Shown in pieces: positions 15,471 to 64,000 of a DNA stretch of 64,000 nucleotides; within the stretch, counting starts at the first letter, position 1; the number at the start of each line of letters is the position of its first letter. The DNA lies in contig NC_057719.1 of assembly GCF_004010195.1 (NCBI RefSeq), positions 42,062,239-42,126,238 of the forward strand, in the 5' to 3' direction. This DNA comes from Chiloscyllium plagiosum (Eukaryota). The notes below the pieces were generated by a model. That model was not told the DNA's origin. It searched no databases and saw only the letters and a list, made by a program, of their open reading frames with translations. The translations under genes were made by a program, and so were the position numbers.

Positions 15471-16484
15471 GCCGACATTTTCTTCAGACACCTATATTTT
15501 TCTTCAAGTTAAAAATACTACTAAGACACAACTTTATGCACCTCATAATTGTAACAAGGTTTACCAAACATATGATTTTCTAATGCAATTTTACTGTAAT
15601 AGTCTTATTGCCCCATACCCATAATGTCTGCTATTTTTGTTTGCTTTAACCTACACAGTTACAGCAAACCATGCCAGGGAAAATCCTTCTCAAGTTGGCT
15701 GTAATTTTCAACATTGAGACTTCAAGAGGTTTATGCAAACATCTATTTAATGTCAGCAGCCAACGATTGCAATATCCTTCCCATTAATTTGTTTTATGTT
15801 CAAATATTTGATGGTAGACAATGATTAGATTGAATTAGTTACTATAGAGACAGAAGCTTTCAGCTTCCAAAGTGAAATCAAAGCATTCATACCCTCAGCT
15901 CATTCCAATGTAATGCATTCATTTATCAATCCCAAAATCGTCATACATTTTACTCCAAAAATTCATTTTATTTTCCTGTAATAGCTCACTCAATCATAGA
16001 GTCATACAGCAGGAAACAGACCCTTTGGTCCACCTCATCTACACCAACCAGATATCCTAAAGTCCAATTGGTCAGCATTTGGTCCATATCTCTCTAAATC
16101 CTTCCTATTCATGTACCCATCCAGATGCCTTTTAAATGTTGCAATTGTACCAGCCTCCACCATTTCCTCTGGCAGCTCATTCTCTACACACCCCACTCGC
16201 TTGTGAAAACGTTTCCACTCAAGTCCCTTTTAATTCTTTCCCCTCTCATCTTAAACCTATGCCTGGTAGTTGCCCCCAACCTAGGAAAATAACCTTGGCC
16301 ATTCATCCTATCCATGTCCTTCATGATTTTACTAAACTTTATAAAGTCACCCCTCAGCCTCTGATGCTCCATGAAAAATAGCCCCAACCTATTCTGCCTC
16401 TCCCTATAGCTCAAAACCTCCAACTCTGGCAATATCCTTGTAAATCTTTTCTGAACCCTTTCAAGTTTAACAACATCTTTCCTA

Positions 16485-16738
16485 CGGAGAAAGTGAGGAC
16501 TGCAGATGCTGGAGATCAAAATCAAGAGTGTAGTACTGGAAAAGCACAGCAGGTCAGGCAGCATCCGAGGAGCAGGAGAATTGACGTTTCAGGCATAAGC
16601 CCTTCACATTATGCAATAGTGGAAGTGAAGAAGGTTATCTCAGAGAACAACAGGACCTTGCATAATGTGAACTGTCAATTCTCCTGCTCCTCGGATGCTG
16701 CCTGACCTGCTGTGCTTTTCCAGCACTACACTCTTGAC
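16485..16738. mobile_element. Palindromic PLE-terminus insertion with a captured spacer
   Basis: Arms ~16523-16585 and ~16674-16738 are reverse complements; exact TSD caacatctttccta at 16471-16484 and 16739-16752. Confidence 0.85.
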
Positions 16739-17127
16739 CAACATCTTTCCTATGGCAGGGAGACCAGAACTGAAAGAATTATCTTTAAAATTATCTCACC
16801 CATGTCCTGTGTAGCCACAACATGACCTTCTAACTCCTATACTCAATGCTCTGACCAATAACGGCAAGCATGCCAAATGCCTTCTTCACCTCCACGTCTA
16901 CCTGAGATTCTACTTTCAAGGAATTATGCACCTGCATCCCTCGGTCTCTTTGCTCAACAACATTCGCCAGACCTCTACTATTAACTTTATAAGTCCTCAA
17001 AGTTTGCTTTACCAATCTGCAACACCTGATAGTTATATAAATTAAACTCTATCTGCCATGCCTTGGCCCACTAGCTCATCTGATCAAGATCCTGTTGTTC
17101 TCTGAGATAACCTTCTTCACTGTCCAC

Positions 17128-17447
17128 TATAGCATCAATTTCAGTGTCATCTGCAAACTTACTAACAATTCCTCCTATATAGACATCTAAATAATTTATA
17201 CAAATATTGAAAACTGTGGATGTAGCACCGATCTTTACAGTACACTATTGGTCACAGGCCTCCAGTCCAAAAAACAGTCCAAAACAGGCCTCCAGTCCAA
17301 AATAGCATCAATTTCAGTGTCATCTGCAAACTTACTAACAATACCTCCTGTATAGACATCTAAATAATTTATACAAATAATGAAAACTGGTGGATGTAGC
17401 ATCGATCTTTCCAGTACACTATTGGTCAAAGGCCTCCAGTCCAAAAA
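17128..17447. repeat. Tandem duplication of a CR1 segment (~145-bp copies about 170 bp apart)
   Basis: atagcatcaatttcagtgtcatctgcaaacttactaac...ggcctccagtccaaaa at ~17128-17272 and ~17302-17447, with short repeated pieces at the junction. Confidence 0.9.
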
Positions 17448-18145
17448 ACAACCCACCATCATCATCCTCTGTCTCTGAATTTCAGTTCAATTTTGTATCC
17501 AATTAGCTAGCTCCCCATGTGACCTAACCTTGCTAAACAGTCTACCATGCGAAACCTTGTTGAACACTTGCTGAAGTCCATGTAGACAATGCCCTCCACT
17601 CTGCCTTCATCAATGTTCTTTGTCACCTCTTAAAAAAAACTCTATCAAGTTAGTGAGACATGATTTCCCATGGACAAAGCCATGTTGACTATCCCTAACC
17701 ATTTGTTGTCTTTTCAAATCCTGTCCCTCAGAACTGCCTTCAACAACATATCCATCACAGACATCACGCTCACTGATCTTTAGTTCCCTAACTGTTCCTT
17801 ATAGTCTTTCTTAAATAATGGCACTACATCAGCCACCTTCCAGTCTTCAGGCACCTCACCCATGGTTGTTGATAATACAAGTATCTCAGCAAAGGGCAAA
17901 TCTCTTCCTTAGCTTCCCACAAAATTATATGAGACATCTGATCAGGTCCCAGGGATTTTTCTACCTTAATGCATTCTAAGGCTGCCAGCACTTCCTCTTG
18001 TATAATTGGCTACTTTTCAAAATGTCACTATTTGTATGCACCACACCACAAACTAGCTTCTGCTAATCAACCATGAAAGTATTTGTCACTGTTTGAACAT
18101 TCTGGGCCATTCACAATTGTACTGTAGGAAGAATTGCCCCTGTAG

Positions 18146-26564: not shown

Positions 26565-26785
26565 TGTCGAAAAGTGTGGCACTGGAAAAGTACAGCAGGT
26601 CAGGAGGCATCCAAAGAGCAGGAGAGTTGACATTTCTGGCATAAGCCCTTCATTACGAATGAAGGACTTATGCCTAAAACGTCGAATCTCCAGCTCATCG
26701 GATGCCACCTGACCTGCTGTGCTTTTCCAGCGCCACACTTTTTGACTCTAACTCTCCAGCATCTGCACTCCTCACTCTCTCTCAG
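26565..26785. mobile_element. Palindromic PLE-terminus insertion
   Basis: Symmetry centre cccttcatt-acg-aatgaagg (~26655); TSD tggctttttatcag (26551-26564) / tggctttgtttcag (26786-26799). Confidence 0.8.
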
Positions 26786-32200: not shown

Positions 32201-33286
32201 ACAAGCAGAAAATTGCACCACCCTCTGCATCATTTCGGCTTCTAAGCGGTAAAAGTCATGGCCTCCCACATCTGTCTGCCTTTCCTATTCCTCTCTGTGC
32301 ATTTGGATCAAACCCTTGTTTGCCGATACACAGGGTCTTCTCCTGGCTGAGCCTGACGAAGGAGAAAGCTTGTGATTTCAAACAAACCTGTTGGACTGTA
32401 AGCTGGTGCTGTATGATTTGCCTGAGTGTGAGCACGGGCCTGGCCTTGGGCAGTCCTCCGAGTGCCAGCGACTAGGAGCATTTTCTCCTCAGCCAGCTGC
32501 AGAGCTGTCACCATGAGGTCCAACCAGGTTGTGGTCTCACACTTTCTAAAACCATTCTCACTGTGATGTCAGTGTCCGAGCTGATGAAGGCTGAAGGAGG
32601 AAGCCTTGCTGATTCTTCTTCTGAGGCCTCAGTTCTCTCACCCTCAGAGGTCAATATGGCTGCTTCTAGGGGAGAGACCTATTGCTGTGTGGAAGGGGTT
32701 GACATCCTGCTGGCAGCTGCAGGACAGAAGAGAGAGAATCAGTATCACAGCCAGTGATTAGGAGGGGTATACAATGAATTACATTGACAGCAGGGTTAAG
32801 GTGAGAGTTACAGTGGAAAACCTGCCCATTCGGTGGGACATAAATGTCTCAGTATCCCCACAGGAGACCAACCCAATCTTCTCCTGTGAAGGCTTAGGGT
32901 TTCTAAGCTTGTTGGGGCCAAAGAGTCCATCATCAGGCACCTCTGCACCAAATCTGGTGAGTTGTCTTCTCCTGGCAATGAGAGAAAGGGAGGGGGTGAG
33001 CGAGGTGAAGGTGAGTAGAACAGCTATCCATCCCAGAGCAGGTTCTGGCGGGGTGAAGGGGGAAGATGGTGTGCTGTCCTGAGTGAGTGAATAGGAAGCT
33101 CACTGGCCATGCAGAATTAGTGGTGGGGAGGTTGGGATGGGGAATGAGAATAGGTGAGAAAAGATGTTTCTGAGAGTGACAGAGCATGAAGCTTGATGGC
33201 AGTAGGTGCAGCAGCAGAGAGGAGAGTGGGGCACTTACCCTGACAGAGAGGAGAGGAGAGTGTCTTTCCTTTACAACCTGGAGATG

Positions 33287-33512
33287 ATAGGCGAAAGTGA
33301 GGACTGCAGATGCTGGAGATCAGAGTCAAGATTAGAGCGGTGCTGGAAAAGCACGGCAGGTCAGGCAGCATCCGAGGAGCAGGAAAATTGACAGGCAGGG
33401 ACCAGATTAGTACAGAGGTGCCTGATGAAGGACTTTTGCCTGAAACGTTAACTTTCCTGCTCCTCGGATGCTGCCTGACCTGCTGTGCTTTTCAAGCACC
33501 ACTCTAATCTTG
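33287..33512. mobile_element. Palindromic PLE-terminus insertion
   Basis: Arms ~33326-33391 and ~33448-33513; exact TSD aacctggagatg at 33275-33286 and 33513-33524. Confidence 0.85.
33421..33452 (+). ncRNA. Minimal hammerhead ribozyme core
   Basis: ctgatga-aggac-tttt-gcct-gaaacgtt: CUGAUGA and GAAAC boxes intact; the cleavage triplet reads GTT instead of GTC. Confidence 0.6.
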
Positions 33513-34061
33513 AACCTGGAGATGGTACTAATGCTCAGAGCTAGCAGGCAGGGTCTAATAGTGCAACATTTGGGAAGGTGACTCCTTCCCTTTTCACCAC
33601 GCCATCCACCATGTCCCTGTCAGTGAAGCATGGTGCCATCATTCCCTTCTCTACTGTGTTCTAATTCTGTCCATCATTGAGTGGATAATTTTGGTCAGCC
33701 AGTGCTCATCCAGGTACACAGTGCTGTTTCAAAGGCAGCAGGTCTGCAAGAGATGCCAGTCTTTGAGCAGATATCCTTGAGTTGTGAGTTATTCCAGGAA
33801 TGGGATGTTGTAAGATGAGGCATAGGTCAAATGTGAGAGATGCTAAAGGGAAGTTGATAGGAATTAATGAGGTGGGTTTAGCAAAATAGAATGAGAAAAC
33901 TCACCAGGCCTCTTGGTGAAAAACACTCCAAAACAGTAAGATTTAGCATTATGTTTTTCTCCCATTAAAGCCAGACTGACTTTCAATTTTTTAAGAAGTG
34001 TGTGTAAAAATATGGCTTTATTAATAAGGCAAAATTTTAGTCCTTAACAATTTCTCTTTAA

Positions 34062-35208
34062 CATAGAGTCATAGAGATGTACAGCATGGAAACAGACCTT
34101 TCGGTGCAACCTGTCCATGCCGACCAAATATCCCAACCCAATCTAGTCCCACCTGCCAGCACCCAGCCAATATCCCTCCAAACCCTTCCTATTCATATAC
34201 CCATCCAAATGCCTCTTAAATGTTGCAATTGTACCAGTCTCCACCACTTCCTCTGGCAGCTCATTCCATACATGTACCACCCTCTGTGTGAAAAAGTTGC
34301 CCCTTAGGTCTCTTTTATATCTTTCCCCTCTCACCCTAAACCTATGCCCTCTAGTTCTGGATTCCCTCGCCCCAGGGAAAAGACTTTGCCTATCCATGCC
34401 CCTCATCATTTTGTAAACCTCTATAAGGTCACCCCTCAGCCTTCGACGCTCCAGGGAAACAGCCCCAGCCTGTTCAGCCTCTCCCTGTAGCTCAGATCCT
34501 CCAATCCTGGCAACGTCCTTGTGAATCTTTTCTGAACCCTTTCAAGTTTCACAACATCTTTTCGATAGGAAGGAGACCAGAATTGCATGCAATNNNNNNN
34601 NNNNNNNNNNNNNNNNNNNNNNNNNNNNNNNNNNNNNNNNNNNNNNNNNNNNNNNNNNNNNNNNNNNNNNNNNNNNNNNNNNNNNNNNNNNNNNNNNNNN
34701 NNNNNNNNNNNNNNNNNNNNNNNNNNNNNNNNNNNNNNNNNNNNNNNNNNNNNNNNNNNNNNNNNNNNNNNNNNNNNNNNNNNNNNNNNNNNNNNNNNNN
34801 NNNNNNNNNNNNNNNNNNNNNNNNNNNNNNNNNNNNNNNNNNNNNNNNNNNNNNNNNNNNNNNNNNNNNNNNNNNNNNNNNNNNNNNNNNNNNNNNNNNN
34901 NNNNNNNNNNNNNNNNNNNNNNNNNNNNNNNNNNNNNNNNNNNNNNNNNNNNNNNNNNNNNNNNNNNNNNNNNNNNNNNNNNNNNNNNNNNNNNNNNNNN
35001 NNNNNNNNNNNNNNNNNNNNNNNNNNNNNNNNNNNNNNNNNNNNNNNNNACCAAACGCCTTCTTCACTAACCTATCTACCTGCGACTCCACTTTCAAGGA
35101 GCTATGAACCTGCACTCCAAGGTCTCTTTGTTCAGTAACACTCCCTAGGACCTTACCATTAAGTGTATAAGTCCTGCTAAGATTTGCTTTCCCAAAATGC
35201 AGCACCTT
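34062..35208 (-). mobile_element. 5'-truncated CR1 LINE spanning an assembly gap
   Basis: MLHFGKANLSRTYTLNG... and RDLRGNFFTQRVV...; tail catagagtcatagag; near-identical to the 8562-9007 and 12017-12490 copies. Confidence 0.92.
34594..35049. other. Assembly gap (N run)
   Basis: 456 N bases. Confidence 1.
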
Positions 35209-36558: not shown

Positions 36559-38783
36559 CAGAGAAAGTGATGAGTGCAGATGCTGAAGATCAGAATTGAA
36601 AAGTGTGGTGCTGGAAAAGCACAGCTGGTCAGGCAGCATCCGAGGAGCAGGAGAGTCAACGTTTTGAGCATAAGCTCTTCATCAGGAATGTGGGATGGCC
36701 CAAAGGGGGCTGAGAGATAAATAAGAGGGTGGGGGGAGCTGGGCAGACAGGTAGCTGGGAATGTGAAAGGAAGATGGAGGTAGGGGTGATGGTGATAGGT
36801 TGGAGAGGAGGATGGAGCGGATAGGTGGGAAGGAAGGTGGACAGGTCAACAGGGCAATGCTGAGTTAGAGGGTTGGTTCTGGGATAAGGTAGGGGAGGGG
36901 AAGTGAGGAAACTGGTGAAATCTAAGTTGATCCCATGTGGTTGGAGGTCCCAAAGTGGAAAATGAGGTGTTCTTCCTCCAGGTATTGGGTGGCTAGAGTT
37001 TGGCGGTGGAAGAAGCCAAGCACTTGCATGTCCTTGGCAGAGTGGGAGAGGGAGCTGAAATGTTCGGCCACAGAGCAGTGGGGTTGATTGGTTTGTGTGC
37101 CTCAGAGATGTTCTCTGAAACATTCTGCAAGTTGGCATCCTGTCTCTCCAATGTAGAGGAGACCATATCGAGAGCAATGGACACAGTAGATGATGTGTAT
37201 GGAAGTACAGGTATATCTCTGTTGGATGTGGAAGAATCCTTTAGGGCCTTGGATGGAGGTGAGGGGGAGGTGTGAGCACAGGTTTTGCACTCCTTGTGGT
37301 GGCAAGGGAAGGTGCCAGGAGTGTAAGGTGGGTTGGTGGGGAATGTGGACCTAACAAGGGAGTCAGGGAGGGAATGGTCTCTGCAGAACGCAGATAGGGC
37401 GGGGAGGGAAATATATCCCTGGTGGTGGGGTCTGTTTGTCGATGGCGGAAGTGGCAGTGGATGACGCGATGTATCCGGAGGTTGGTCAAGTGGAAGGTGA
37501 AGACCAGGGGGCTCTGTCCTTGTTGCAGTTGGAGGGGTGGGGTTCAAAGCCGGAGGTGCAGGAAGTGGAGGAGATGCACTGGAGGGCATCATTGACCACG
37601 TGGGAGGGGAAATTGCGATGTTCTATGGTGGAATTGGTCCTCCTGGGAGCAGATGCAGTAGAGGCCGAGGAATTGGGAGTAAGGGATAGCATTTTTACAG
37701 GAGGTAGGGTGGGAGGAGGTGTAGTCCAGGTAGCTGTGGGAGTCGGTGGGTTTGTAGTAGATGTCTGTGTTGAATTGGTCTCCGCAAATGGAGATGTCAG
37801 GTGCAGGAAAGGGAAGGAGGTGTCCAAGATGGTCGAGGTGAACTTGAGGTCAGGATGGAAGGTGTTGATGAAGTTGATGAACTGTTCAACTCCTAATGTG
37901 AGCACACAGTGGCGCTGATACAGTAGTTGATGTAGAGGAGGTAATGGTGGGGAATGGTGCCAGTGTAGCTGCAGAAGGTGGATCGTTCCACGTACCTGAA
38001 GAGGCATGCAAAGCTGGGGCCCATGTGGAAGCCCAAGGCTACCCCTTTGGTCTGGGAAAAGTGGGAGAATTCGAAGCACAACTTGTTGAGGATGAGGACC
38101 AGTTCAGCCAATCGAATGAGTGCATCAGTGAAAGGGTACTGGCTGGATCAATGGGAGAGGAAGGTACGGAGGGCTTGGAGACCTTTGTCATGGTGGATGG
38201 ACGTGTATAGAGACTGAATGTCCATGGTGAAGATGCGGAACATTTCAGAGAACTTCTCTGGGACACGCGCACCAATCAACTCCACTGCCCTGTGGCCGAA
38301 CACTTTAACTCCCCCTCCCAGTCCGCCAAGGACATGCAGGTCCTGGGCCTCCTCCACCTCCAAACTCTAGCCACCTGACGCCTGGAGGAAGAATGCTTCA
38401 TCTTCCGCCTTGGGACATTCCAACCGCACAGGATCAATGTTCATTTCACCAGTTTCCTCATTTCCCCTCCCCCACCCTATCCCAGATCCAACCCACTAAC
38501 TTGGCACCACCTTCTTGAACTGTCCTACCTGTCCATCTCCCTTCCCATCTATCCGCTCCATCCTCCTCTCCAACGATCACCATCTCCCCCCACCTTCATC
38601 GACCTATTCCATTCCCAGCTACCTTCCCCACAGCTCCACCCATCTCCCATTTATCTCTCAGCCAACCTTGGGCTCCCTTCATTCCTGATGAAGAGCTTAT
38701 GCTCAAAACGTCAACTCTCCTGTTTCTCAGGGATGGATGCTGCCTGACTGGCTGTGCTTTCCCAGCTCCACATTTTTTGACTC
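36559..38783 (-). mobile_element. Penelope-like element: minus-strand RT-GIY-YIG body (36559-~38232) plus an inverted terminal repeat (~38233-38783)
   Basis: FTMDIQSLYTSIHH, QTKGVALG..MGPSFACLF, HIIYCVHCSRYGLLYIGETG...FREHL; both ends carry cctgatgaagagcttatgctcaaaacgt; TSD tggtttactt at 36547-36556 and 38784-38793. Confidence 0.9.
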
Positions 38784-40095: not shown

Positions 40096-40220
40096 AGAAA
40101 GTGAGGACTGCAGATGCTGGAGATCAGAGTCGAGACTGTGGTGCTGGAAAAGCACAGCAGGTCAGACAGCATCCGAGGAGCAGGAGAATTGACATTTCAG
40201 GCATAAGCCCTTCATCAGGA
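40096..40220 (-). mobile_element. Solo PLE terminus beginning at the hammerhead core
   Basis: Minus strand cctgatgaagggcttatgcctgaaatgtc...; TSD aactccatata (40083-40093) / aactccgtata (40221-40231). Confidence 0.8.
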
Positions 40221-40299
40221 AACTCCGTATACTTGCCTTTGGCCAATATCCCTTATCATCTTAGCTTAACAAAAACATATCAATCTCAGATTTAAAATT

Positions 40300-58267: not shown

Positions 58268-59103
58268 GGAGAAAGTGAGGTCTGCACATGCTGGAGATCA
58301 GAGTCACGAGTGTGTTGCTGAAAAAACACAGTAGACCAGGCAGCATCCGCAGAGCAGGTGTTTGATATTTCAGGCCAGAGCCATTCATCAGGAATGAGGC
58401 TGGAAGCCTCAGGGATGAAGAGATAAATGGGAGGGGGTGGAGCTGGGGAGAAGATAGCTAAGAGTGCAATAGGTGGATGGAGGTGGGGGTAAAGGTGATA
58501 GGTCAGAGGGGAGAGTGGATCGGATAAGTGGGAAACGAAGATTGAGAGGTGGGACAGATCGTGAGGACAGTGCTGAGTGGAAGGTTGGAACTGGGGTAAA
58601 GTGCAGGAGGGGAAATGAGGAAACTGGTGAAGTCCACATTGATGCCCTGGGGTTGAAGGGTCCTGAGGCGAAAAATGAGGTGTTCTTCCTCCAGGCATCA
58701 GGTGGTGAGGGAGTAGCGGTGGAGGAGGCCTTGGACCTGCATGTCCTCAGCAAAGTGGGAGGGGGAGTTGAAATGTTCAAACTCCCACCACTCCAACAGC
58801 AACAAGAAAAGAAGCCCCCTGATCCTCATCTTCCATGCCACCAACCTCCACATAAATCGCATCATCCACTGACATTTCCGCCACCTAAAAATGGACCCCA
58901 TCACCAGGGATATATTTCCCTCCCCACCCCTATCCAATTTCCTCAAAGACCATTCCCTCCGTGACTACCTGGTCAGGTCCACGCCCCCTAACAACCCACC
59001 TTCCCCTCCTGGCACATTCCCCTGCCACCGCAGGAATTGCAAAAACCTGCACCCACACCTCCCCCCTCACCTCCATACAAGGCCCCAAAGGAGCCTTCCA
59101 CAT
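58268..59103. mobile_element. PLE with an inverted terminal repeat (minus, 58268-~58780) and a plus-strand body cut by ERV-B
   Basis: Minus core cctgatgaatggctctggcctgaaat; plus body homologous to 21513-21650 and 37240-37520, ending at gagccttccacat|TG. Confidence 0.85.
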
Positions 59104-59854
59104 TGTTGGGGAGATTTCACTGGGGTGTTTAATGTAGGGCTAGGGAGGGTGACACTAGTTCTGCAGCCCTGAAATGGTTAACAACAGCCAAGCGAGCTGC
59201 TGCTGGCGACTGCATGACTACCTGGCTGGAGCTTGTAAGGGATATGCATAATGTTAATTAAATCTTGGAGCCTGTAAATACCAGCCAGTATCAATTGCCC
59301 CATCGAAACTCGGGATTAATAAAGAAACCGATCGGAATCTGTAACTGTTAGACAAGTGCGAATTGCTCTATCGGAACCTGTAACTGTTAAGTGTGAATGG
59401 CTCTATTTAAGTCTAAAGTTGATAAGTGTAATTGTCAATTTAGTTAAACTGAAACTATTGAAAATGGCTAGCCTGTCAGACGCATAGTAATTCCTTGAAA
59501 CAATGAACTATCGAATACGGGATCGGAACCGCTCCCGGGGATGGCTGAGCCATTGTCAAGCACAGCAGGAGCTGGACAGACACTTCGATGCGGCCAATAG
59601 GAGGACGGATCCCCAGCGCGCGCAGATGAATAGACCAATGGGGAAGGCGAACTGACCGGGGACTCCAGGCAGCGCGAAGTATAATTGTGTCAAGTTTGAA
59701 CGAGAAGGGAGAACGCCTTCTCCAACGAATGCATGCTTGTAGATTCGTTGTACCAGGGAATAAACGGCTGTCTGCGTCTAACCATAGTTGCCAGTGTGAG
59801 TCTCTCCTTCCGAAAGAACACGCAAAGACGGGACCCCGTGGGTCCGTCTTAACA
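59104..59854 (+). repeat. ERV-B 5' LTR
   Basis: TGTTGGGG...TTAACA; CCAAT at ~59594 and ~59635, TATAA at ~59680, AATAAA at 59759; ~38-bp tandem repeat in U3 at ~59331-59406. Confidence 0.85.
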
Positions 59855-60298: not shown

Positions 60299-60593
60299 CG
60301 ATTTTGCAGATTGTTCTGCCTGACACTTACCTGACGTTACCTACCTGAGCGCTGACCATATTCGACTTCCTGGATCCATGTTACTGAGCACTTAAAACTG
60401 ATTAATTTTTTGTTTGCATATTCGTTGTGACCACCGAACATACCCGGGGTGACAGAGGTCGGAACTCTTCTCCTAAAGAGGGTTTAACCGTACAGACGTC
60501 TGCCGGTTGTTAAGAGCAGAGATCTGCCACGCGAAGGTCAGGCTTTGAAAGACGTACTGTTCTTGAAGCGGTTCCCTTCAGGGGAGATCCGAC

Positions 60594-61550
60594 ATGGGGG
60601 ACCTGAATTTCGGACCACCTCAGTTGACTCACCTCAGGACAGCACGTCCCGGAGTGCCCTGGTGGCACTGCAGGGACGGTGGGGACATGCCTATTCACAG
60701 TCAGTTACTGCTGGATAGCGTAGCCCTGCATAAGGAAAAGTTGGACCTGGTGATTGCCCAAGCACCAGAACAAAAAGGAATTATCCTGACAAGATTGAGG
60801 GAAACATTTAAAAATCCCACATTAATGATCAAGATTCTGGACGGTCTCTACAGGTCACCACATTATTCGGCTCTCCAAACAATTGCGCTAGGCAAGCCCC
60901 CCGCTGGGTGGGCACCCCCGAGCACTGATAGCTCCCGGGAATGGAAAACAAAAATGGTTGTGACTTTTACCCCGCAGTGGCGATACAGACCGGTTTGTTC
61001 CCCTAATGGCCCAACTGTTTCGGACGGTCTTACCCGGGAGCTAGACTATTTAGCCACGACTGTTACTTTACCCACTGATGCATACACTAACGAGTCCACC
61101 GCAGTCCCAAAAACCCCCGACTCGCGGCCACCAACAGGGGAGATATTGGGGGAGATCAGGACCCAGTTAAGGGAGAATAATACTGCTATGGAAGCTAAAA
61201 GAAAGATCCGTAACCTAGATAATAGTCTCAAGCTGTGGCGGGTTAAGAACTGGATGACCAACCCTTCTTTACGACAAGCGAATTTGATGCCTTCCAAGCT
61301 AAAATCCTAACCTGCCTGCGGGAGAGGAAAGGGGATACCAAGAAAGGGTTTTTTAATTTAGCCAAATCTTCCACTAGAAGGGAGGATGAAGACGTTTACT
61401 TGCAGGAGCTTCTGATACGCTTCCAAAGCCACTTACCGATTTCACCAATTCACACACCAGTATTGGATGAGCAGGGTCCTGTCCTGGAATGTGAGCCTGA
61501 GTGGTCTCTGAGCCAAACTCCAATTTACCCCCCCACCCCCTACACTTCTC
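60594..61550 (+). pseudogene. ERV-B leader/gag N-terminal ORF, probable frameshift at ~61245, truncated by deletion
   Basis: 238-aa ORF starting MG in the gag position; an overlapping frame continues to a Pro-rich stretch (PIYPPTPY) and then jumps into RT. Confidence 0.6.
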
Positions 61551-61554
61551 CTGT

Positions 61555-64000
61555 GGTGGTGAGTGTCAGGAGTGGTTTGCCTTCACCTTCGAGGGAGAGC
61601 GGTACACATACAATCGCCTCCCACAGGGATACAAAGTCTCCCCAGGCCTGTTTAGTGCGGCTTTGACCCCTATACTTAAACAGATATCGCTTCCCACCAG
61701 CACCACAATCATACAGTATGTCGATGATTTGTTGATTGCCAGTGAAACTGACACCCAAAATTTGGAGGCGGTCCGCACCTTGGTGGACACCCTTGTGGCA
61801 GCCGGTTTTAAAGTAAAACGGGAAAAGTGCCAGATAGCCCGAAAATCAGTATCCTTTATGGGACGAATAGTAGGAAAAGGGGGCACCACACTTTCAAGAG
61901 CGCACAGGGAAGCGATCCGCTCCTATGGCACCCCTATAACAGTACAGGACATGATGGCCTTCCTGGGGTTATGTGGGTATTCTCGCACCTACGTCCCTGA
62001 CTTTGTGACTATGACATCCCCACTCAGGGAAATGATCACGGAGGTTGGGGCAAAGAGGCTCAAGAGTCAGTTGCGATGGAACGCGGAGAGAGAGAAATCA
62101 TTCAAGGAGGTGAAGCAAGCTTTGGGAGCAGCGGCCACGCTAGCGCACCCAGACTATAAGAAAGGTTTCCACCTGGACGTGGCAGAGACTGAGGGGGTAG
62201 TAAACGCCGTCCTGTACCAAAAGGACCGAGGCTGCAGGAGAGTGCTGGGGTATTACAGCTGCCGTTTAGAGCCCATTGAGAAAGGGCAGCCAGGCTGTGC
62301 CAGATTTGTGGCAGCTGTAACGAAAGCGGTCAACACTGACCATCTAGTACTCTGCCATCCCTTGACTATTCACACAGATCACAGCATCGGAGCCTTTCTG
62401 GCCTCCAACTCATTCAGCTTTTCAGCTGGGCGGCAGGTTAGAATTGAGAATGCCCTTCTATCACCGCACATTACGTTTGCATCCGATAGGGGGAGTACTA
62501 GGAATATGATGGTGGGAGTGAATGGGGGATCCTTGAAGCCCCACGACTGTGTGCCAGAGTGGCTGAGGAGAGGAGGATACGTAAGGGGTTGCACACAGAA
62601 CCCCTGGCCGAGGCAGACTGGGACCTGTACACCGATGGCAGCAGCCGTCGGGAAGCAGGCGGCGTACGAGCCTCGTATGCCGTGGTCAGAGATTCAGGGG
62701 GGGTATACGACACCATTGAGTCTGGGGAAATCCCACAGCCTGCATCTGCACAGCTAGCAGAGATTACAGCCCTGACAAGGGCATTAGAACTGAGTGAGGG
62801 ACACCGAGTTAACATCTTCACTGACTCCAATTATGCATGGACCGCAGTCCACGTAGAGGGCACAGCATGGGTTAGACGTGGTTTTAAAACCAGCACGGGG
62901 AGGCCGGTAAAACACGACCAGCGTTTGCGATGGTTGCTCCAGGCAGTGCATCGTCCAAGGGAAGTGGCAGTAGTGAAAGTGCAAGGACACTCTGCCTTAC
63001 GTACCAGGGAAGCGCTGGGAAATGATGCAGCTGAGAGGGCAGCCAAGCTCGCAGTGCAGATGGTCACCCTGAGGTCATGGACAGACACCCAACAGAGTCC
63101 GGGGCTGGGGGAGGGTAGCAGTGATTCCCCTGGGGAGGCAGCTAGGGTTGATGCCATTAGGCATCTGTGTGAGCTGCAGGGACGGGCGAGCAGTGCTGAG
63201 GTCAGGGAATGGGAGAATAAAGGCGCAGTCCGACAGTATGTGGAGGTCGAAGGGTCTCAACAGCCCCTTTGGCGATCCCCGGGAGGAGAGGTAGTGGCCC
63301 CGAGGGCTCTCCTCCTAACACTTTTCTCTGAAATACATGGGCCAACACACGTGGGAGTTGCCCAAGTTGTAAGAACCGTCCAGAACCACTGGTGTGCACC
63401 CCGGCTGCGGGAACATATAGAGAACCTGAGGGCTGAGTGCAGGGTGTGTAATGAGTACAACACCAGGAGAGTTCTCCCACACCCGATGTTAAAGTTCCCA
63501 ACCCCGACAGGGCCGTGGCAGGAGATCTGCATGGACTTTACGGACATGGGAGTCAAATGGAGGACCCCAGATAACTACAGATACATGCTAGTCGTAGTGG
63601 ACAGATTCTCCCGTTGGGTAGAGGCAACTCCTACAAAGACGGAGGATGGGGAAGTTGTTGTGAAGTGGCTCACAAAGGAATTGATTCCCCGCTATGGCGT
63701 CCTCCGAAAAATCTGCACAGACAATGGGACACATTTTAAAAACGAACATCTTGCCCGGGTGGAGGCTACTCTAGAGATACTTCACCGCTACGGCAGTGTC
63801 TACCACCCTGAGAGTCAGGGGTTAGTAGAGAGGGCCAATCGCACGCTTAAAGACAAGATTGCCAAGGTCATGGCAGGGACTGCATTGACGTGGGTGCAGG
63901 CACTCCCCCCTAGCCTTGCTGTCAATGAGGCAGGAAAGGAGTGGCGATACCTTCCTGACACCCCATGAAATCCTGACAGGTCGCTCCATGCCTGGCCCCC
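61555..64000 (+). pseudogene. pol: ERV-B pol (RT core, RNaseH, integrase); N-terminus deleted, frameshifts at ~62560 and ~63905
   Basis: [78 protein letters not shown]. Confidence 0.95.

Follow-up and report, generated by a model that had tools for sequence, protein, structure and literature searches.

Insertions of Penelope-like elements (PLEs) carry an inverted, 5'-truncated copy of the pLTR together with a tail of 30-40 bp, an arrangement that the available parts of PMC8557442 and PMC3846280 present as standard, and the arm junctions described in those parts are palindromic or overlapping, with long host captures of untraced origin. A PLE protein has been shown to nick both target strands and extend them, the tail corresponding to the interval between two start sites of the RT (PMC11167929). 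The steps that follow cDNA synthesis have been described as not validated (PMC11167929), and the formation of tandem and inverted PLE structures as still undefined in the accessible portion of PMC8557442.

Locally templated fillers are already known for R2, L1 and break repair. At the snap-back 5' junctions of R2, one cDNA is joined to the target after its 3' end has primed extra synthesis on the cDNA or on nearby genomic DNA (PMC11371274, in the part available). L1 local inverted duplications consist of an inverted copy of nearby DNA with the target duplication kept, for which the accessible text of bioRxiv 10.1101/2024.12.14.628481 models self-annealing of the resected reciprocal end. Templated filler combined with a snap-back that creates microhomology, leaving a junction-spanning inverted repeat, is the pattern of SD-MMEJ and of polymerase-theta insertions, as far as the available sections of PMC2943611 describe it. 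The locus reported here resembles all three, yet its filler lies between two element arms, unlike that of R2, and the self-annealing modelled for L1 differs from the route proposed below; relative to SD-MMEJ, the apparent donor, of 55 nt, lies at a distance of 350-400 bp, and two successive switches would be involved. It differs from the described PLE insertions in that the arm junction holds DNA traceable to the same locus. No report of local fillers between PLE arms was found in the literature covered, which was thin on subscription journals and supplements.

The window analysed was a stretch of 64,000 nucleotides from Chiloscyllium plagiosum (contig NC_057719.1), to which all positions refer. 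A 251-bp, non-coding, Penelope-like insertion occupies 16488-16738 within a decayed, minus-strand LINE RT copy, which we take to be of CR1 type on the basis of the first-pass annotation and of recall. The features of the locus were as follows.

16471-16487, plus strand: left target-site duplication of 17 bp, 16/17 identical to 16739-16755, inside the CR1-type LINE RT copy
16488-16606, minus strand: long arm, the 3' end of the Penelope-like element, ending inside the hammerhead-like core
16608-16660, minus strand: filler, an inverted copy of 17085-17139 (51/53 letters)
16661-16671, plus strand: 11-nt copy of 16603-16613, putatively of snap-back origin, completing a 14-bp inner inverted repeat
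16668-16738, plus strand: short inverted arm, with 4 differences in 71 relative to the long arm
16739-16755, plus strand: right target-site duplication
17085-17139, plus strand: filler donor, 347-401 bp to the right of the insertion

The long arm begins with a tail of about 33 nt (16488-16520), is 93% identical to the copy at 40096-40214, with a stem II that folds, and has 13 matches elsewhere in the window. The short arm is without the 33-nt tail and without 15 central nt, and its first 4 nt coincide with the last 4 nt of the snap-back segment. The segments 16521-16591 and 16668-16738 are complementary at 67 of 71 positions, such that the inverted, 5'-truncated pLTR copy is present, and one base between the long arm and the filler belongs to neither. 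On the minus strand, the donor encodes by translation the residues that immediately follow the FADD motif of the host LINE RT, homologues of which made up five of the six candidate proteins, with PF00078 in three. Reads of the CR1 family run uninterrupted across the insertion site (loose ends at 16482), and the copy at 12.2 kb is likewise uninterrupted there. The same CR1 copy contains a tandem duplication of approximately 173 bp (17122-17455) that begins inside the filler donor; the divergence between its two units, about 5%, is similar to that of the arms, and its junction (approximately 17277-17302) repeats short local pieces. The duplication may have arisen in the same repair event as the filler.

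The insertion shares with PLEs, as portrayed in the accessible parts of PMC8557442 and PMC3846280, the head-to-head arms, the one-arm tail and the target duplication; its core is putatively hammerhead-like, and copies of the family lead into a candidate GIY-YIG-like ORF. A tail of approximately 33-35 nt, within the 30-40 bp of PLEs, was found on one arm only in all three same-family palindromes, and the 17-bp duplication, with 16 identical positions, agrees with the variable-length target-site duplications of this group. The 40.1-kb copy displays CUGAUGA, stem II and GAAA, and the 16.6-kb copy is cut inside this core; CUGAUGA and GAAA are presumably the hammerhead ribozyme motif of the pLTR. 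Rfam at the gathering threshold gave no hits in the window, and a Pfam scan of six short window frames likewise gave none. A neighbouring PLE-like frame (37105-37350, minus strand), flanked by longer copies, is 69% identical to its sole homologue, P0006, which is labelled Chiloscyllium punctatum and matches GIY-YIG at an E-value of 0.0046, which falls short of the Pfam cut-off. Decayed family members of greater length, leading into the GIY-YIG-like ORF, were observed at 36562-38765, with inverted ends, and at 58270-59170. The family is very abundant, with an arm depth of approximately 36,000 in one read run versus approximately 0-2 in single-copy bins, and position 16518 is a frequent joint in reads of the family.

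The first-pass annotation had identified the spacer 16616-16655 as the reverse complement of 17090-17130 with one base deleted; this was borne out, the absent base being G17122, and the match was found to extend over 16608-16660 versus 17139-17085, with 51 of 53 letters identical, two substitutions and two donor bases absent. The longest exact run measures 32 nt from 17090. This local alignment scored 86, a value reached by none of 1000 shuffled queries (maximum 36-37) and by none of 1000 simulated flanks (maximum 35), whilst among 30 further 2-kb blocks of the window the highest score was 44, from the CR1 copy at 12.5 kb. A donor in direct orientation was rejected, with scores of 16-21 versus 86. 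The insert is thus very probably templated near the break (51/53 to 17085-17139), as in templated-insertion end joining.

Since CR1 copies are abundant, with hundreds of reads matching the donor at a likeness of at least 90%, the filler might instead derive from another CR1 copy or its transcript, with the local match reflecting family resemblance. Against this, the filler agrees with three other CR1 copies of the window at 41, 40 and 35 of 53 letters, as opposed to 51 locally, and the 32-nt exact run is accompanied by three shared minority letters: family reads carry a non-local letter at 17099 (754/830), 17132 (259/317) and 17135 (211/314), and at each site the filler has the local letter. 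These counts come from one raw-read run at a likeness of at least 90%, with 40 of 129 rows listed, and the three sites are non-independent. The variant gagaacaacag, which had been singled out as local, does carry the minority letter at 17099 but is not private to the locus; its uniqueness was ruled out by the presence of the same REQQ residues in one of five protein homologues (P0004), an occurrence elsewhere that also speaks for a source in another copy. The local D-A-I residues occurred in none of the five. The donor of a second filler, described below, has no other match within the window, which further argues against a non-local source. Taken together, a source in another CR1 copy appears very improbable, and the sequence comparisons make local derivation of the filler highly probable.

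The perfect 14-bp inverted repeat reported at 16603-16616 and 16658-16671 is present; it does not form a separate bracket around the spacer, however, because 16608-16616 and 16658-16660 are themselves derived from the donor. The repeat is mostly captured DNA plus the 11-nt snap-back. Its interpretation as a feature of the element was rejected, since other copies continue differently. The most economical order of assembly is long arm, then donor, then snap-back, as the reverse order gives no source for 7 nt of the repeat. Base 16615 is unlike the donor but perfectly paired, which suggests a copying error or a correction within the hairpin.

An assembly or library chimera, arising from an inverted chimeric read, was also considered, as no read or contig crossed the junction among the matches listed (15 of 1304 joints and 24 of 342,200 pieces). 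Placement of reads from four runs at 90% likeness was dominated by repeat reads and so counts neither for nor against the junction. Part of the window was present in 18 of 23 read runs, and exact contigs of run X15, which may be the source sample, cover 16349-16424, 16864-17105 and 17151-17260. The target duplication speaks against a chimera, as does divergence: the arms (4/71), the target duplication (1/17) and the filler versus its donor (4/55) each differ by about 6% from their partners, whereas a chimera would copy exactly. These alike divergences fit a single event and argue against an artefact, albeit with low power, and a chimera is barely credible. In the runs of organisms B and C, neither an empty nor a filled orthologous site was found, and a single 146-nt piece, matching 16923-17068 with seven differences, may be orthologous. 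A metagenome scan for further copies returned no matches.

With a probability that we place at roughly 0.5, the preferred reading is that both target strands primed cDNA synthesis and that the head-to-head ends were joined during integration via a locally templated, inverted filler. The target duplication, the two arms, the filler-donor match and the inner inverted repeat are directly shown for the 16.6-kb copy, and the steps connecting them would be as follows. The element's enzyme would nick both strands 17 bp apart; one nick would prime cDNA from the end of the RNA tail, yielding the long arm, and the other from a second start approximately 33 nt further in, yielding the short arm. Short arms begin approximately 33-35 nt into the element in all three same-family palindromes, which fits the second RT start site of PLEs (PMC11167929). 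The two cDNA 3' ends would then have the same sequence; lying on opposite strands, they would be unable to anneal, so that end joining would be needed. The end of the long arm would switch to 17139 and copy through to 17085, after which the 11-nt snap-back would make a 4-nt end capable of annealing to the end of the short-arm cDNA. Joining would be of the synthesis-dependent microhomology type, by a polymerase-theta-like enzyme or by the RT itself, between which the sequence cannot tell. The filler is a scar without function.

Two aspects sit less comfortably with twin priming. The switch from cDNA to donor shows no microhomology, and the template would be the strand beyond the break, which resection normally removes, so that unwinding has to be postulated. 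By comparison with L1, whose twin-primed halves represent different portions of the RNA, both arms here derive from one and the same portion.

Full fold-back fits the 16.6-kb copy alone equally well, because all element sequence of its short arm is also present in the long arm. In this model, put forward in the first-pass annotation, one nascent strand would proceed from cDNA to local DNA, snap back and then use its own cDNA as template, jumping over a 15-nt hairpin that lies between two 4-nt repeats and ending at the tail boundary. A single path thereby accounts for the copy, and slippage in a full fold-back would yield the same letters at the resolving junction, that is, the 14-bp inner repeat and the 4-nt short-arm overlap. 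Snap-back onto cDNA or nearby rDNA is documented at R2 insertions in the available text of PMC11371274, and self-priming has been proposed for PLE inverted junctions in that of PMC3846280. Both arms also share minority letters (16532/16727 and 16582/16677), although these are equally expected from a common RNA source. A weakness of the model is that synthesis would have to halt invariably at the tail boundary, whatever the copy.

A further copy bears on this choice, and its features were as follows.

33293-33514, no strand assigned: second palindromic copy of the same family, with a target duplication of approximately 13-16 bp and a filler at 33393-33420
32921-32958, plus strand: region from which the second filler was probably copied in inverted orientation, to the left of the second insertion at a distance of 334-371 bp

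In the 33.3-kb copy, the tail is present in the long arm and 21-26 extra central nt in the short arm. As each arm has element sequence absent from the other, neither is a simple copy of the other, and one fold-back would be insufficient without a later central deletion. This asymmetry, together with the short-arm starts found in 3/3 copies, argues against one long fold-back as the maker of the inverted arm, and we regard the one-strand model as unlikely. Its local origin and short snap-back are supported; the making of the whole inverted arm in this way, and the placing of the event during integration, go further than the locus itself records.

As for the second filler, 33 of 38 letters agree between 33401-33437 and the reverse complement of 32921-32958; 17 letters resemble the element's own core, and these point both to a microhomology role and to an inflated score. 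The filler with core was equalled by none of 1000 shuffles and none of 1000 simulated flanks, and the filler alone by 16/1000 and 9/1000, respectively (p about 0.01-0.02). For the opening 9 nt of this filler, a source in the right flank scored only 18. The similar distances of the two donors (334-371 and 347-401 bp, n = 2) are only a hint. The window holds four palindromes, two with foreign filler and two without (26570-26780, and approximately 2100-2333, of another family), such that only two of four offer a testable filler, the second being weak when judged by its filler only, a point that tells against the twin-primed reading. The palindrome at 26570-26780 is an older copy in the opposite orientation, the centre of which is solely element sequence, and 40096-40221 is a single arm only. 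Among other genomic copies, centres were varied, with short unrelated letters between the arms (12 of 800 rows listed), in keeping with the twin-primed reading.

In a third possibility, a near-perfect palindrome was inserted and later, through a hairpin or cruciform, suffered a central break, the repair of which trimmed the two sides unequally and added a filler templated locally. Later repair would leave the same scar, accounts for the arm asymmetry in both filler-bearing copies, and accords with the absence of foreign filler at 26570-26780; central asymmetric deletions or spacers stabilise palindromes, according to the available part of PMC8701086. Against later repair, the same review describes spacer inclusion as uncommon in transgene palindromes. 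Moreover, filler-donor divergence is not below that between the arms or between the target duplications, and hence gives no sign that the filler postdates the insertion; this comparison of ages has little power. Later repair is accordingly judged quite unlikely.

From fillers whose local donor can be traced, one can read in what order, on which strand and how far the joining step proceeded. One such scar by itself belongs to ordinary repair biology, and its value lies in the test opened by a survey; given the abundance of the family, a simple survey could separate twin priming, fold-back and later palindrome repair. It is conceivable, if rather doubtful, that PLE inverted termini in general arise by twin initiation, in which one RNA end would serve as template for both nicked strands, each from its own start site, with fillers routinely consisting of inverted host DNA, preferably from about 350 bp away on the far side of the break. 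If so, the tens of thousands of palindromic copies in the genome would be a fossil record of the joining step, possibly accompanied by local rearrangements linked with it, for example the duplication at 17122-17455.

Several side observations were recorded. A 456-N assembly gap (34594-35049) lies inside a CR1 copy. The RT P0003 shares 75% identity with the host LINE; its record assigns it to Proteus mirabilis, on a 1687-bp contig, probably through host contamination of the bacterial record. Open frames of 247, 139 and 418 aa are present at 60567-62757, and the 418-aa frame, in which YVDD is presumably an RT-like motif, resembles the pol region of an LTR-retroelement or retrovirus-like element.
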